From IMG/VR virus record IMGVR_UViG_3300029305_001816, positions 52,739-72,738 of that record: DNA of 20,000 nt; one strand, written 5' to 3'. Within the stretch, counting starts at the first letter, position 1. Each line of letters begins with the position of its first letter. The translations under genes were made by a program, and so were the position numbers. The notes beneath the pieces are model-generated. The model did not search any database. It had not been told where the DNA came from and saw only the letters and a program-made list of their open reading frames with translations. Source of the DNA: an uncultured virus (IMG/VR IMGVR_UViG_3300029305_001816) (lineage: Duplodnaviria > Heunggongvirae > Uroviricota > Caudoviricetes). Positions 2,474-17,172 of the stretch are shown in pieces.

Positions 2474-2491
2474 GTAATCGAGGGTGTATAT

Positions 2492-2731
2492 ATGTTATTA
2501 ACAAAAATAACAAATTATATTAAACAGATGTTTTGTCGTCCTAAGTATTATAATGAAAAATATGGTTTGTATAATATTGTTGGCATCAAATATCGAATTG
2601 ATTATTTAAAGGCAGATGCATTAATCGTTACAGATGATGGAATATGGTATAAAGTACCTTATATTTGGTTAATAAAAAACTCAATGGATGAAAATGGACA
2701 TCCTGTTCAGATAAATAATAAATGGATTTAA
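2492..2731 (+). CDS. Hypothetical protein
   Basis: 79 aa with a GAGGGT RBS, co-directional with its neighbours. Confidence 0.5.
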   Translation: MLLTKITNYIKQMFCRPKYYNEKYGLYNIVGIKYRIDYLKADALIVTDDGIWYKVPYIWLIKNSMDENGHPVQINNKWI

Positions 2732-2824
2732 TTATTTATAAAATATAAATATATAACTAATAAAAAATGAAATTATGAAACTGCCATAAGCAAAACTATA
2801 AATAAAATGGAAGGGTGATTGATA

Positions 2825-3103
2825 ATGGCAGAGACTAAAGACAAAGTTGTTACTGTAGAATCTTTGTCAGTTTTACATGAACACAATAAAGGGACTTACA
2901 TGCCAATGGTTAACCCTGTTGGCAGTGGAACAATGACAATAGATGGTGATGGGAGCTTTTCTGGAAATTTAAATGTAAGCTCTATAACCATAAGTTCAAA
3001 TGTGAAATTAATTCCCAATGAAGATGGGATTGAAATAGTATTCTTAAATCAAAATACAACAACAGAAGAAACGTCTGAAGAAGAAATTGTAGAAGAAAGT
3101 TGA
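2825..3103 (+). CDS. Hypothetical tail-module protein with acidic C-terminus
   Basis: AAGGGTG RBS before the ATG at 2825; ends in EETSEEEIVEES. Confidence 0.55.
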   Translation: MAETKDKVVTVESLSVLHEHNKGTYMPMVNPVGSGTMTIDGDGSFSGNLNVSSITISSNVKLIPNEDGIEIVFLNQNTTTEETSEEEIVEES

Positions 3104-3115
3104 TGGTGATGTTTA

Positions 3116-4618
3116 ATGGCAACTGTTTCTAAGTGGACTCCATTTGGAGTTGCTTTAAATATTACTGCAACTGGCAGCACTGTAACTAGAAAATCTGCTA
3201 CTCAATATACAGTGAAAATTAATGTTTCTTGGGAGACTTATTGGGATGGAGCTAAAACAAATTACGGTATGACAGCTTCATCTGGTGGCGTTACTAAAAC
3301 TATAAGTGCATTTGATGGCACTAAAAGAAGTAGTGGAAGCAGTTCTTTTACAGGTACATATTCTATTAGCGGAAATGGTTCTGCAACAAAAACAATTACT
3401 GTTACTTTTAAAAACTTTAATACGGATAACGATGATTCAGCTACTAAGACCGTAAGTTTTAGCGTAGCCGTTCCTGCTTGGACTTCTTACACAGTTAAAT
3501 ACAACGCCAATGGTGGCTCTGGCGCTCCTTCTAGTCAAACAAAATGGAAAGACCAAACTCTTAAACTTTCAACTACTAAACCGACAAGAACTGGATATAC
3601 CTTTCAAGGCTGGGGAACTTCCACTAGCGATACAAGTATAGACTATGCTGCTGGTGCAAATTATACAACGAACGCAAGTATTACTTTGTATGCCATCTGG
3701 AAAGCGATTACTTACACAGTTAAATACAACGCCAATGGTGGCTCTGGTGCTCCTGCTAGTCAAACAAAAACATACGGTAAGTCCTTGACTTTAAGCACGA
3801 CAAAGCCAACAAGAACGTCTGTAGATGATAATGGTACTTTGACAACATACACATTTAAAGGTTGGGCTACTTCCGCTACATCAACTTCTGTCGCTTATAA
3901 AGCTGGTGCGAGTTATACAGCAAATGCCGCAATTACTTTATATGCTGTTTGGAGTAAAACAGTTTCTACAAGTACGTTCGATGTTTCATATAACACCAAT
4001 GGTGGCTCAGAAGTTATATCTCAAATAAAAATTAATGGAGAAACACTTGTATTAAGAAGTACGGTTCCTGTTAAAAATGGATATACATTTGTTGGATGGG
4101 GCTTATCTGCTGATTCTACCACTGTTTCTTATTCTGCTGGCGGAGATTATACGCTAGATGAAGACATTGTTTTATATGCTATTTGGACTCCTTGGAGTCA
4201 TACAGTTGCTTTCGATGCAAATGGTGGAACAGGAAGTTTGCCAGAAAGCTTTATTGCAACTACTGGAACAGACGATATAATAATTCCAAATTGTTCTCTT
4301 ACTAATGGAAATTATGTGTTTAAATATTGGTCTACTACCCCTAGTGGTTCTGGCGGAAAGAAGTATTATGTTGGCGACGGTTATACTGGTGTAAAAAATG
4401 GTGGAACAGTTACTCTTTATGCGGTTTGGGATGAAACCAATATCTATTTATATGCCAATGGACAATGTAAGGCAAGTGAATTCATTGAAGATAATTCGTA
4501 TAGTTTTAATAGTGATGGCACAATTCATTATGCCCAATTTATAGAGGGTAGTCCGTCTATTAATTTTAATTCAACGGCTTTTTATGCGGCAGAATTATTG
4601 GAGCGCATCATTGTGTAA
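3116..4618 (+). CDS. InlB B-repeat (Listeria-Bacteroides repeat / Flg_new) containing virion-associated protein
   Basis: Four repeats of the pattern (Y/F)(N/D)(A/T)NGG...Y.F..W...Y..G..Y......LYA(I/V)W. Confidence 0.85.
   Translation: MATVSKWTPFGVALNITATGSTVTRKSATQYTVKINVSWETYWDGAKTNYGMTASSGGVTKTISAFDGTKRSSGSSSFTGTYSISGNGSATKTITVTFKNFNTDNDDSATKTVSFSVAVPAWTSYTVKYNANGGSGAPSSQTKWKDQTLKLSTTKPTRTGYTFQGWGTSTSDTSIDYAAGANYTTNASITLYAIWKAITYTVKYNANGGSGAPASQTKTYGKSLTLSTTKPTRTSVDDNGTLTTYTFKGWATSATSTSVAYKAGASYTANAAITLYAVWSKTVSTSTFDVSYNTNGGSEVISQIKINGETLVLRSTVPVKNGYTFVGWGLSADSTTVSYSAGGDYTLDEDIVLYAIWTPWSHTVAFDANGGTGSLPESFIATTGTDDIIIPNCSLTNGNYVFKYWSTTPSGSGGKKYYVGDGYTGVKNGGTVTLYAVWDETNIYLYANGQCKASEFIEDNSYSFNSDGTIHYAQFIEGSPSINFNSTAFYAAELLERIIV
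3486..3769 (+). repeat. 59-bp near-identical direct repeat (3486-3544 and 3711-3769)
   Basis: CTTACACAGTTAAATACAACGCCAATGGTGGCTCTGG(C/T)GCTCCT(T/G)CTAGTCAAACAAAA with 2 mismatches and a 225-bp period; these are the starts of B-repeats 1 and 2. Confidence 0.95.
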
Positions 4619-12994: not shown

Positions 12995-13086
12995 TGGCGG
13001 AAGCGGAGAATTTCGAAATCTCACACGACTTTCGCCGCTACTGCTGGTTTTCAAGACCAGTCCCTTGCCTTTAGGGTTACGCTTCC
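12995..13086 (-). tRNA. tRNA-Ser(TGA)
   Basis: GGAAGCG/CGCTTCC-GCCA, CTGGT-CTTGAAA-ACCAG, long variable arm. Confidence 0.95.
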
Positions 13087-13117: not shown

Positions 13118-13792
13118 TCAATTCATATACAGTTCATAGTAACTTTGATTTGCTTTTGGTTTTAAATTTGGATACTTTAAATATTTTTCGATAAAGACGA
13201 TTGTATTTTCTAATCCATATTTTCTTATATATTTATTAATTATATTTTTACCAAGACCAAGAATTTTTGACCAGTCTCTCCCAGAGTGAACTTCTCCGTT
13301 TACGTTGATTAAAGAAGTAGCAGATGTATATTTTGAATTAAATTCTTTAGTGACCCACCTACAATTTTCAGGACAATAATTTAATTTCGGGTTTTCTCTA
13401 TCGATTGTTAATGAATCGTCATATCCATTCTGTAAAGCCCACTCTTCAAACATTTTTGGATTATCCATCCATTCATCACAAACTTTGATGCCCTTAGCAC
13501 CATACCATCTGTAATTTTTGTCTTTTTCATTATAGCAACGTTGCTTCATGCCGTTAAAAATTACTTTAATACGTTCATTATCCCAGTTTGTTAAATTAGA
13601 TATCACTTTGCCATCTATTCGTACATGCACACATTTTGTACTTACCTTCAAATCATAATATCTTGCTATTCTTTTAAATCCACAATCATTACAGATACCC
13701 TTATACAACGCATGACCGTCTTCATCTTTGTATGGCATTAATTCGGTTATCGTAAATATACCAGCGGTTTCTCCTATGTGATTTTTGCTCAT
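13118..13792 (-). CDS. Free-standing HNH-type (homing) endonuclease
   Basis: MKQRCYN....NY.WYG.KGIKVCDEW...F..W...GY...LTIDR......Y.PENCRW motif, plus an N-terminal CxxC. Confidence 0.8.
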   Translation of the reverse strand: MSKNHIGETAGIFTITELMPYKDEDGHALYKGICNDCGFKRIARYYDLKVSTKCVHVRIDGKVISNLTNWDNERIKVIFNGMKQRCYNEKDKNYRWYGAKGIKVCDEWMDNPKMFEEWALQNGYDDSLTIDRENPKLNYCPENCRWVTKEFNSKYTSATSLINVNGEVHSGRDWSKILGLGKNIINKYIRKYGLENTIVFIEKYLKYPNLKPKANQSYYELYMN

Positions 13793-13900: not shown

Positions 13901-13991
13901 TGGCGGAGGCGGAGAAATTCGAATTCTCGCATCAGTTTCCCGACCTATTCCCTTAGCAGGGGAACCCCTTAAGCCACTTGGGTACGCCTCC
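13901..13991 (-). tRNA. tRNA-Ser(GCT)
   Basis: GGAGGCG/CGCCTCC-GCCA, TTCCC-CTGCTAA-GGGAA, long variable arm. Confidence 0.95.
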
Positions 13992-14040
13992 GTATTCGCC
14001 TAGTTAGTCAACAGTAATCGACTAGCTAGACTTTATTAAA

Positions 14041-14178
14041 TTAACCTTCTGATTCTAGCTTACGCAGCTTGCGTTTCAGTTTACGAATGATATTACCGTT
14101 CATAACTGGGTCTTTTACGGTCAGAAGATGAATTCTATTCTTGAGTAGAGCAATATTAGTTTCATTTGTATTTGTCAT
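14041..14178 (-). CDS. Small basic protein, 45 aa (absent from the ORF track)
   Basis: GGAGGT RBS; MTNTNETNIALLKNRIHLLTVKDPVMNGNIIRKLKRKLRKLESEG. Confidence 0.7.
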   Translation of the reverse strand: MTNTNETNIALLKNRIHLLTVKDPVMNGNIIRKLKRKLRKLESEG

Positions 14179-14356
14179 AATTTACCTCCAAATAATTTGA
14201 TTGTGCAGTTCCCGTTTAATTATCACATCGTTAGCGAATTGATTAAACCGCTACCAGTACAACAGCATCAATTAACCACGCAGTTTTCAACGAGCATTGT
14301 CAATTTCTCTGAGGTGTCCTGCTCTCGCTCAGTTTATTCGGGCGCTACCCGACCTC

Positions 14357-14431
14357 TGGCTGTCCCGACTGGATTTGAACCAGTGAATGTCAGAGTCAAA
14401 GTCTGATGCCTTACCGCTTGGCTACGGGACA
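14357..14431 (-). tRNA. tRNA-Gln(TTG)
   Basis: TGTCCCG/CGGGACA-GCCA, TCAGA-CTTTGAC-TCTGA. Confidence 0.95.
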
Positions 14432-14558
14432 ATATTTATTATTTACTGGCTGTTACAGTGCGCCCAAAGGTGGACACGCTACGAATTCCACGCATATGAT
14501 TAACTTCTGTCTCTACAAGTGTTAATCGACTCAGCCGCTTTCTATGTGTCGGCACACA

Positions 14559-14637
14559 TGGCACACCGTATTGGACTTGAACCAATGACCTACTGCTTAG
14601 AAGGCAGTTGCTACATATCCAACTGAGCTAACGGTGC
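14559..14637 (-). tRNA. tRNA-Arg(TCT)
   Basis: GCACCGT/ACGGTGT-GCCA, ACTGC-CTTCTAA-GCAGT; slightly enlarged D-loop. Confidence 0.93.
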
Positions 14638-15243: not shown

Positions 15244-15317
15244 TGGTGGAAAATGTCGGTGCTGCCCCGCTACTCCTCGCCCCAAACGAGGTGTGTTACT
15301 GTTACACTACATTCTCC
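15244..15317 (-). tRNA. Atypical tRNA-Pro(TGG)
   Basis: CCTCG-TTTGGGG-CGAGG anticodon arm, 8-bp acceptor GGAGAATG/CATTTTCC-ACCA, T-loop GGCAGCA, D-loop without GG. Confidence 0.8.
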
Positions 15318-15410: not shown

Positions 15411-15485
15411 TGGTGGTTCCGCACAGTCCTGACCTGTGACCGCCTCGGTTATGAGCCGAGTGTACTTCCATTATACGACGGAACC
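15411..15485 (-). tRNA. tRNA-CAT (Ile2 or elongator Met), atypical T-loop
   Basis: GGTTCCG/CGGAACC-ACCA, CTCGG-CTCATAA-CCGAG, T-loop GTCAGGA. Not an initiator (1:72 paired, no GGG/CCC stem). Confidence 0.85.
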
Positions 15486-15488
15486 ATT

Positions 15489-15581
15489 TGGTAGGGGTGG
15501 AGGGTAACGCTCCCTACACACGGCACTAATCTGGTGCGCTCTGGTTTATAAGACCAGCGATGCTCTTTACATTACACCCCC
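15489..15581 (-). tRNA. Atypical long-variable-arm tRNA with TAT (Ile-AUA-reading) anticodon
   Basis: GGGGGTG/CACCCCT-ACCA, CTGGT-CTTATAA-ACCAG, ~24-nt variable region with GCAC/GTGC stem, T-loop AGCGTTA. Confidence 0.8.
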
Positions 15582-15672: not shown

Positions 15673-16392
15673 TTAATTCATGTATAATTCGTAATAAGAT
15701 TGATTATGCTTTCGATTTTTATTTGGTTCACTTGTAAATTTTTTAATAAATTCAATAGTGTTTTCTAAACCATGCTTCCTTATGTATTTATTTATCATAT
15801 TTACATTAAATCCTAAAATTCTTGACCAGTCTTTACCAGTATGTTTCTCACCATCTATATCTATTATAGAAGTAGTAGATTTATACTTAGCATTTTCAAC
15901 ATTCTCAATCCATCTACAGTTGTCTGGTGAATAGTCTTTGTCTTCGTCGATTCTATCAATTGTTAGATTATCTTCGTAGCCATTCTGTAGTGACCATTCT
16001 TCAAATAATAGTGGATTATCAAGCCACTCATTGCAAATTTTTATACCTTTTTCTCCATACCATCGATATGTTTTGTTATTCTTGTTGTAACAACGTTGTT
16101 TCATATCACTAAAAATACTTCGAATTCTACGGTTATTCCATTTTATTTGTTGCACATATCTGCCATCAGGAGACACATGCTTACATATTGTAGCTATATG
16201 CGATTTTCCAGTAATTTCACCATAAGTTGAATATTTTTTATATCCGCATTCTTTGCACTCAGCTACATAAATGTAGTGTCCATACTTATCTTTTTCATCG
16301 AGCATATCTACTATCGTGTAGATTCCGTGTTGTTCTCCTATGTGAGAACGTGGGTCAAAATTACTTTTCTTACTTCTTTTGTTTCTTGCCAT
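15673..16392 (-). CDS. Free-standing HNH-type (homing) endonuclease, paralogue of 13118-13792
   Basis: MKQRCYN...YRWYG.KGIKIC.EW...LTIDRID....YSPDNCRW; same terminal NQSYYELYMN; GAGGAG RBS. Confidence 0.8.
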   Translation of the reverse strand: MARNKRSKKSNFDPRSHIGEQHGIYTIVDMLDEKDKYGHYIYVAECKECGYKKYSTYGEITGKSHIATICKHVSPDGRYVQQIKWNNRRIRSIFSDMKQRCYNKNNKTYRWYGEKGIKICNEWLDNPLLFEEWSLQNGYEDNLTIDRIDEDKDYSPDNCRWIENVENAKYKSTTSIIDIDGEKHTGKDWSRILGFNVNMINKYIRKHGLENTIEFIKKFTSEPNKNRKHNQSYYELYMN

Positions 16393-16767: not shown

Positions 16768-16823
16768 ATTATATCATACTTTGTTTTGTTTGTCAAGAAC
16801 TTTTTTTGATTTTTCTGAAATCT
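16768..16823 (-). promoter_or_regulatory. Sigma-A promoter P1 with CodY-like box
   Basis: TTGACA (16791-16796), 17 bp, TATAAT (16768-16773) with TGn extension. Box ATTTTTCTGAAATCT at 16809-16823. Confidence 0.85.
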
Positions 16824-16878
16824 TTTTTAAGTTTTCCAAATCAAATCCCTCAACAACTCACTCGGTTTTTACATGAAT

Positions 16879-16933
16879 ATTATATCATATCTTCGTCACC
16901 TTGTCAAGAACTTTTTTCGAATTTCTGAAAATA
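16879..16933 (-). promoter_or_regulatory. Sigma-A promoter P2 with CodY-like box
   Basis: TTGACA (16902-16907), 17 bp, TATAAT (16879-16884) with TGn. Box GAATTTCTGAAAATA at 16919-16933. Confidence 0.85.
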
Positions 16934-16998
16934 ATTTTTGATTTCCCAATCGTTTAATTCTCATCAATTATCATCTGCTTCGCTCATTGACTGTAGGT

Positions 16999-17053
16999 AT
17001 TATATCATATCTAAAACCAAATGTCAAGTACTTTTTTGAATTTTCTGAAAGTT
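16999..17053 (-). promoter_or_regulatory. Sigma-A promoter P3 with CodY-like box
   Basis: TTGACA (17022-17027), 17 bp, TATAAT (16999-17004) with TGn. Box AATTTTCTGAAAGTT at 17039-17053 (14/15 to AATTTTCWGAAAATT). Confidence 0.85.
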
Positions 17054-17124
17054 TTCGTTTTATCCTAATCCATTATATCTACCTATGTCGGAGGTCAATA
17101 GCCAATTGCCTTACCGACATAGGT

Positions 17125-17172
17125 ATTATATCATACTGGAAATTAAATGTCAAGCACTTTTTTCAGAAATTT
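17125..17172 (-). promoter_or_regulatory. Sigma-A promoter P4 with CodY-like box
   Basis: TTGACA (17148-17153, containing the phosphoesterase stop codon), 17 bp, TATAAT (17125-17130) with TGn. Box TTTTTTCAGAAATTT at 17158-17172. Confidence 0.85.

Follow-up and report, generated by a model that had tools for sequence, protein, structure and literature searches.

Here, we describe a tRNA gene of an uncultured phage that, judged from its sequence and its relatives, is a tRNA-Ile(UAU) variant in which an additional arm resembles the Ile anticodon arm. With tRNA-Ile(UAU) it shares a UAU anticodon in a loop with U33 and A37, an A73 discriminator and a class I core, while the short variable loop usual in these tRNAs is absent. 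The architecture is widespread and apparently undescribed, the tRNA-Ile(UAU) of lactic acid bacteria having been compared by title only. We suggest, with about even confidence, that this tRNA is a TilS-independent reader of AUA codons that is charged by the host IleRS through a GAU loop on the second arm. The gene lies in a 20,000-nt stretch of DNA (the window) that forms the end of a 72.7-kb virus record of 52% completeness.

A preliminary description of this DNA had noted a UAU anticodon, a G1.U72 pair, A73, an encoded CCA, the T-loop AGCGTTA and a D-loop lacking GG, all of which we confirm at 15581-15489 (Table 1). The D-stem, given there as 3 bp, has 4 bp, the fourth pair being U.G here and U-A in the homologues L071 and L149. 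The variable region was rightly called long and measures 23 nt (15540-15518) instead of about 24; it holds a covarying hairpin that had been seen as a class II arm, and its GAU-bearing, second anticodon-like character had been overlooked. The decoding arm stands in canonical register to the D-arm save for one extra linker base, and the T-stem bulge is also present in L126. ARAGORN misses the gene at its default score and finds it at a lowered score, the Rfam tRNA model gives 24.4 bits against a cut-off of 29, and the single-sequence fold is no better than that of shuffles (z -1.3). Contigs of public DNA runs, one of which may be the source sample, span the gene in overlapping pieces with zero differing letters. 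The pairs G4-C69 and G29-C41 are unlike the minor Ile determinants C4-G69 and C29-G41 of E. coli (Giege and Eriani 2023), and both positions are variable across long- and short-arm UAU tRNAs.

Table 1. The UAU tRNA gene, its parts and neighbouring features, in positions of the window
Feature	Position	Strand	Remarks
tRNA gene, 93 nt, five-helix cloverleaf, anticodon UAU	15489..15581	-	7-bp acceptor, 5-bp T-stem with one bulge, A73, encoded CCA
D-arm: 4-bp class I-type stem, 5-nt loop AAAGA, no GG	15560..15572	-	
Decoding arm: 5-bp stem, loop C32-U33-UAU-A37-A38	15541..15557	-	anticodon 15550-15548
Extra arm: 4-bp covarying stem, 7-nt loop CA-GAU-UA	15523..15537	-	GAU 15531-15529, 11 nt upstream of the T-stem; candidate second anticodon arm, for identity
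Unpaired stretch: base 43 plus normal 4-nt variable loop (44-46, 48)	15518..15522	-	
T-arm, non-canonical loop AGCGUUA (A54/U58, G55)	15500..15517	-	loop common to other A18-subgroup members
CAU-anticodon tRNA	15411..15485	-	3 nt downstream of the UAU tRNA; Met or Ile2
Free-standing ORF, AUA-rich (11/23 Ile codons)	15673..16392	-	upstream of the UAU tRNA within the tRNA cluster
Four sigma70/sigmaA-type promoter matches, 12/12 consensus with TG	16768..17153	-	directed into the tRNA cluster; consensus matches only

The gene belongs to a minus-strand cluster in which ARAGORN finds 11 tRNAs, and elsewhere in the window are genes for a serine recombinase, a dUTPase and a ribonucleotide reductase. 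The gene content, together with the faecal runs, leads us to guess at a Clostridia-type host. The adjacent CAU tRNA has a non-canonical T-loop and an arm with C29:G41 and A37-A38, features that we take to fit, possibly, Ile2 rather than Met; many carrier contigs likewise have a CAU tRNA directly beside the long UAU tRNA. A Pro-like tRNA with a UGG anticodon (15244-15317, minus strand) also escapes ARAGORN at its default score; its T-loop is non-canonical, and it reaches 29.6 bits with Rfam. The AUA-rich ORF, which we presume to be HNH-like, is similar to a second ORF that is also free-standing in the cluster (13118-13792, minus strand; AUA in 8/18 Ile codons); neither has a match in Pfam, and in S-CRM01, Semele and 3-521 the long UAU tRNA has annotated HNH genes as neighbours. 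The four promoter matches stand in tandem, 111-126 nt apart. At 13950-14600, a candidate location of a further RNA, the Rfam matches all overlap tRNAs.

Several observations indicate that the gene is real and maintained. BLAST found a homologue (78.5%) in Synechococcus phage S-CRM01, unannotated in that genome. A close-family pattern that left the anticodon free gave 72 matches in viral, metagenome and GTDB contigs; UAU is present in 70, and the remaining 2 are not cloverleaves, as their stems do not pair. The single match in GTDB is not a cloverleaf. The preliminary description had proposed a search for homologues with covarying stems, and this yielded 30 distinct homologues in which 98.7% of cells pair and two-sided changes occur in 18/25 pairs (acceptor 7/7, anticodon stem 4/5, extra arm 3/4, T-stem 4/5), the D-stem being nearly invariant. 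These pairing and covariation values were reached by 0/500 shuffles, slid controls were far lower, and RNAalifold, unaided, gave the same fold for the family. The anticodon arm varies within the close family, A73 is present in 30/30 members, and the tertiary positions change in concert: 18:55 is G:U in 20/29 and A:G in 9/29 (the A18 subgroup, with the window tRNA), 54:58 is U:A, A:U or G:G, and these two change together, while 19:56 is G:C in 29/29 and 15:48 is A:U in 10/29. In L071 and L149, G22 changes to A together with G46, a co-change expected for the 13-22-46 triple of class I tRNAs. From the covariation, the compensated loops and the 22/46 co-change, we conclude that the gene is, on comparative grounds, a conserved and maintained 7/5 tRNA with a class I core and that its odd D- and T-loops are compensated rather than decayed, which contradicts a pseudogene. 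With two patterns that left the arm free, 24/31 and 27/31 matches were true members (7 and 4 rows dropped), and all true members of both have GAU in the middle of a 7-nt loop, except for one lineage of this family with GAC.

The tRNA differs from the known types of long-arm tRNA. Allo-tRNA(UAU) resembles it in the UAU anticodon, the long extra region and the bacterial or mobile origin (Mukai 2017, PMC5389517); however, allo-tRNAs fold as 8/4 or 9/3 with G73 or U73 and a Sec-like long D-stem with a tetraloop (PMC5389517), whereas the window class is 7/5 with A73, and the window tRNA, with its 4-bp D-stem and 5-nt loop, lacks the Sec-like D-arm. An 8/4 fold was rejected on the 7 acceptor and 5 T-stem pairs, of which 7/7 and 4/5 covary, in agreement with the preliminary description. 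In the supplementary tables of Mukai 2017 (PMC5389517), the loop and D-arm motifs of the window class had no matching tRNA. The anticodon arm is indeed the same, outside the anticodon, as that of the tRNA-Ser(TGA) at 12995-13086. Phage tRNAs(UAU) with a short arm and no extra arm exist, and 19/23 viral matches to the anticodon arm are such ordinary short-arm tRNAs; the Ser-like anticodon arm is therefore uninformative, and the link to tRNA-Ser, as well as Ser ancestry, was rejected.

Assignment to the Leu/Ser class II tRNAs likewise fails on arm geometry and, for Ser, on the discriminator. Like class II Leu, Ser and Tyr tRNAs, the window tRNA has an additional stem-loop between its anticodon arm and its T-arm, and like those for Leu and Tyr it has A73. 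Yet the class II arms of the same loci mostly have 4-nt loops (Leu, Ser) and 1-3 unpaired bases on their 3' side (2 in 37/52 Leu, 1 in 37/48 Ser), in contrast to a 7-nt loop of fixed sequence and mostly 4-6 unpaired bases in the UAU class, where the D-stem has 4 bp in 96/103 long-arm tRNAs among the matches listed. Specifically, tRNA-Ser has G73 (42/48 in the same loci) and a variable arm abutting position 48, whereas the window tRNA has A73 and 5 unpaired nt after the arm. It is like tRNA-Leu in A73 and A15:U48, both LeuRS elements, while Leu tRNAs also have G18G19 and A20a in a long D-loop (Giege and Eriani 2023); the window tRNA has a 5-nt D-loop with A18 and an arm with a 7-nt loop and 5 unpaired nt, against a 4-nt loop and 2 nt in Leu. 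In the wider class, 15:48 is A:U in 60/103 among the matches listed. The nematode nev-tRNA-Ile(UAU) also places UAU on a long-arm body; it is eukaryotic, derives from tRNA-Leu and is charged with Leu in vitro, and mistranslation was not observed in vivo (Hamashima 2012, 2015; PMC3333845, PMC4300185), whereas the phage class has a class I-like core and an arm that would mimic the Ile anticodon.

The GAU hairpin is the constant feature of a wider class. Viral contigs were scanned for UAU tRNAs whose D- and T-loops are canonical and whose arm is long, with no constraint placed on the arm itself. This gave at least 112 distinct matches, and 108 were left after 4 had been dropped as non-cloverleaves. 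Among the matches listed, the arm contains GAU in 104/108 (shuffles: mean 38, maximum 56), and in 100 of these 104 the GAU occupies the centre of a 7-nt loop with 3 or more closing pairs (shuffles: mean 1.3, maximum 6) with the consensus Y-A-G-A-U-W-R. Other long arms from the same loci contain GAT in 22/103. Also among the matches listed, A73 is present in 106/108 and the sequences have a median identity of 60%. When they are clustered at 75% identity, GAU is present in all members of 35/39 clusters and in none of the other 4; on these sequences, the long-arm UAU tRNAs are not one recent clade. A reciprocal scan, which fixed the GAU loop and T-arm and left the anticodon open, yielded at least 117 distinct matches, and among those listed 105/117 are long-arm UAU tRNAs (102 by script, 2 mis-called by the script and 1 cut by a contig end). 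Twelve named phages with such tRNAs were found by likeness and are not an unbiased set; GAU is present in 10 of them (S-CRM01, S-SKS1, S-SRM01, SynMITS9220M01, Vibrio Luma, Aeromonas 1233, Sinorhizobium Phosso, LpeD, Lpa804 and ENFP1), whereas the extra-arm loop has GAA in Semele and GAC in 3-521. With one representative as query, the search returned no named phage. The named carriers infect Vibrio, Aeromonas, Sinorhizobium, Synechococcus and lactobacilli; of the five phages of lactobacilli with the arm, two have GAA or GAC (post-hoc p 0.02).

Individual loci show further variety. L097 carries three different long-arm UAU tRNAs within 1.5 kb (2483-3918), all with GAU in the arm and two with U73; two of its long UAU tRNAs have other bodies than the window type. 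The tRNAs of L460 (S-SKS1) and L001 (S-CRM01) have the same extra-arm hairpin on two different D-arm bodies, and there are hints in these sequences that the extra arm moves as a module. L307 and L328 combine a UCC (Gly) anticodon loop with a variable region of about 20 nt that contains CAGAUAA and has no closing stem. A second type of long-arm UAU tRNA, without GAU, occurs in the viral L262 and in two Planctomycetota genomes (G232:C70:4643-4688 and G338:C119:750-794).

The GAU hairpin also keeps a fixed spacing to the T-stem. Among the matches listed, GAU lies 11 or 12 nt before the T-stem in 103/104, which equals the canonical distance from position 36 to 49 in standard numbering, and its distance to the UAU arm ranges from 6 to 14 nt. 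Counted from GAU, the linker is 4 nt in 56 and 5 nt in 47 of the matches listed. In the set of 103 used for arm geometry, which includes matches selected for GAU, the three loop-adjacent pairs form in 101-103 of those listed, the loop closes with C.A in 75, and the stem usually has 4 bp, with 5 bp in 27. GAU arm and linker together are thus sized like the anticodon arm and variable loop of an ordinary tRNA, and the loop of L229, CUGAUAA, is that of an ordinary phage tRNA-Ile(GAU). The UAU loop keeps U33 and A37, whereas the GAU loop does not, having A at '33' in 95/104 and U at '37' in 60/104 among the matches listed. On this geometry, we regard the UAU arm as being in register with the 5' half of the tRNA and the GAU arm with the 3' half.

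The class was seen here only in viral and unassigned metagenome contigs, GTDB as a whole having been covered with the close-family pattern, and we regard it as provisionally phage-specific. Plasmids and E. coli genomes contained no full-length match. With a looser pattern, 43 of 401 Planctomycetota genomes matched, and the matches listed are short-arm UAU tRNAs and a different long-arm type, with no GAU hairpin; one of these genomes, G164, has 28 loose UAU/T-loop matches, and those listed resemble one dispersed repeat. The matches of model R1 in one bacterial genome were Leu and CAU tRNAs of the ordinary kind. Among the carriers, several have an ordinary tRNA-Ile(GAU) gene as well. IleRS and TilS genes were found in 0/5 carrier records, one of them 29% complete and the record of the window outside this set. 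A full-text literature search, with most subscription papers out of reach, returned no description of a GAU-bearing extra arm, and the accessible parts of Giege and Eriani 2023, PMC8007984, PMC10688831, PMC11571807 and bioRxiv 614032 do not mention one.

The preliminary description had also considered that the tRNA is charged with Leu or Ser and recodes AUA, and had proposed comparing AUA codons with Leu and Ser columns in homologous proteins. We aligned a tail protein (residues 1-700) and the ORF at 15673-16392 with 119 homologues each, which gave 38 non-redundant AUA columns from two proteins (46 if the paralogue is included). The mean composition of the AUA columns is Ile 0.62, Leu 0.11 and Ser 0.004, against Ile 0.67 and Leu 0.05 at 46 AUU/AUC columns and Leu 0.93 at UUA columns; 12/38 AUA columns are at least 90% Ile and 0 at least 90% Leu. 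Reassignment of AUA was therefore rejected on these 38 columns of two proteins. The difference between Leu at AUA and at AUU/AUC has a p value of 0.055 in a column test that is blind to low-level ambiguity, and it would fit single-base exchange between AUA and UUA. AUA makes up 21% of Ile codons here, 29% in Luma and 6% in 17 S-CRM01 genes. Among the roles offered by the preliminary description, that of a TilS-independent AUA reader is left as the likeliest.

In the mechanism that we propose, the ribosome would read the UAU loop and the host IleRS would read the GAU loop, so that Ile is loaded. The UAU anticodon, being of the unmodified type, would read AUA with no need of host TilS; in B. subtilis, an unmodified UAU reads AUA strongly and AUG weakly (Kohrer 2014). 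The UAU arm connects to the core through its 5' side, which follows the D-stem, and the GAU arm through its 3' side, from which a normal variable loop of 4-5 nt leads to the T-stem, so that either could occupy the anticodon position. Expression, Ile charging, a contact between IleRS and GAU and a switch of conformers between the arms would all be steps of this scheme, and the prevalence of A in place of U33, together with the frequent lack of A37, would bar decoding by the GAU loop. Whether these tRNAs form a two-anticodon class, with decoding by the UAU arm and identity in the GAU arm and the arms alternating in the anticodon position, we rate slightly below an even chance. A handle for IleRS would be of use because E. 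coli-type IleRS charges UAU poorly, LAU being preferred over UAU 360-fold (Taniguchi 2013, PMC3575796). Mycoplasma mobile solved UAU charging in the enzyme (Taniguchi 2013, PMC3575796); a phage cannot alter the enzyme of its host and may instead have added the triplet preferred by IleRS on a second arm, and recognition of G34 is key for bacterial IleRS2 (PMC13752280). The diversity of hosts infected by carriers suggests a universal host partner, and the near-constant A73 on acceptor pairs that vary freely is consistent with IleRS in this role.

Other findings count against GAU as the handle for IleRS. The mimic is imperfect, as S. aureus IleRS1 uses a U33-U36 contact (PMC13752280) and t6A37 is a strong determinant for bacterial-type IleRS (Giege and Eriani 2023), whereas the GAU loop mostly has A33 and U37. 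The stem usually has 4 bp, UAU tRNAs with short arms exist, and in many carriers the CAU tRNA next to the gene may already be an Ile2 tRNA. The arm occurs in phages of lactobacilli, whose IleRS may accept UAU, being said to have a UAU-permissive Arg (PMC3575796). AUA use is low in S-CRM01, and the LeuRS elements A15:U48 and A73 are present.

The most serious alternative, which we nevertheless consider unlikely, at about one chance in four, is an Ile-charged AUA reader whose UAU is recognised by IleRS, the GAU hairpin having another partner: it could serve ribosome binding or discrimination between AUA and AUG, make a tertiary contact or lure an anticodon nuclease off the decoding loop. Such a reader would fit the alignment of AUA codons with Ile columns, the fact that U34 tRNA-Ile is functional in B. 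subtilis and M. mobile, and the retention of U33 and A37 in the UAU loop and not in the GAU loop. But it leaves an exact Ile anticodon at the exact anticodon spacing unexplained. No conserved internal complement was seen, since D-stem sequences differ between subfamilies, and a nuclease common to hosts of several phyla seems a less likely partner than IleRS. Improbable by comparison is a role outside translation, in which the tRNA would bind IleRS, or some other reader of GAU such as the Ile T-box in Firmicutes, as a decoy or ligand and so disturb the Ile metabolism of the host. A decoy would be compatible with the low demand for AUA in S-CRM01, with the possible Ile2 neighbour, which may make a UAU tRNA redundant, and with the apparent inactivity of allo-tRNA(UAU), six variants of which gave no suppression in E. 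coli (Mukai 2017, PMC5389517). It would, however, have no need of UAU, and the UAU loop is invariant and canonical in 70/70 true close-family matches, the elbow contacts are kept by compensation, and the gene stands among ordinary tRNA genes and often encodes CCA.

Still less probable is a mistranslator that inserts Leu, or with much lower likelihood Ser, at AUA in the manner of the nematode nev-tRNA-Ile(UAU). The long arm, A73, A15:U48, the in vitro precedent (Hamashima 2012) and the slight Leu excess at AUA columns point in this direction; by contrast, the 4-bp D-stem, the 7-nt arm loop and the 4-6 unpaired bases are unlike Leu and Ser tRNAs, Ser tRNAs mostly have G73, Ile makes up 62% and Ser 0.4% of the AUA columns against 93% Leu in the UUA columns, and a mistranslator offers no reason for GAU. 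We give little credence to a two-way decoder in which the UAU conformer reads AUA and the GAU conformer reads AUC and AUU. The canonical 3' register of the GAU arm would suit it, as would L301 and L342, tRNAs of normal length in which an A33-type GAU loop is the sole anticodon loop. A33, a pyrimidine at 37 in most members and the 4-bp stem speak against decoding by this arm, as does the ordinary tRNA-Ile(GAU) encoded by several carriers. Finally, a decaying pseudo-tRNA or a chance fold might be read from scores that fall short of the thresholds of ARAGORN and Rfam, the non-canonical loops of the D- and T-arms, the T-stem bulge and the z-score, and is scarcely credible given that four of five helices covary, that 18:55 and 54:58 co-change and that the bulge is common to L126.

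The tRNAs-Ile(UAU) of M. mobile (PMC3575796) and of a B. subtilis suppressor (PMC3919564) are the closest functional parallels to the tRNA of our preferred reading, having UAU in a canonical loop and likely reading AUA without lysidine. In M. mobile it is the synthetase that accepts U34 (Arg865; PMC3575796), and the accessible text of PMC3575796 does not mention an extra arm on the tRNA, whereas in the phage class the tRNA itself bears an additional GAU hairpin, and the phages that carry it infect unrelated hosts. In Lactobacillus, a tRNA-Ile(UAU) is reported alongside a lysidine system (Tomikawa 2018, PMID 29092074; Uesugi 2022, PMID 35122395), and phages of Lactobacillus carry the GAU-arm class.

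The class would account for many phage genes of 90-95 nt that are labelled tRNA-Ile or left unannotated (S-CRM01, LpeD, S-SKS1 and S-SRM01), and its presence in cultured phages makes it open to direct testing. Most synthetases, IleRS among them, find their main identity element in the very triplet that decodes the codon, which is why the reading of AUA in bacteria depends on lysidine and why tRNAs with a plain UAU are uncommon. If identity sits in a second loop, this would be a new answer to the AUA/AUG problem and a new tRNA architecture, and an arm acting as the IleRS identity element would represent a new principle of tRNA design. It would amount to a portable identity module that frees the decoding anticodon, and would permit recoding designs in which any anticodon is combined with Ile identity. 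For the phages themselves, it would mean that they read AUA with the IleRS of the host while bypassing TilS.
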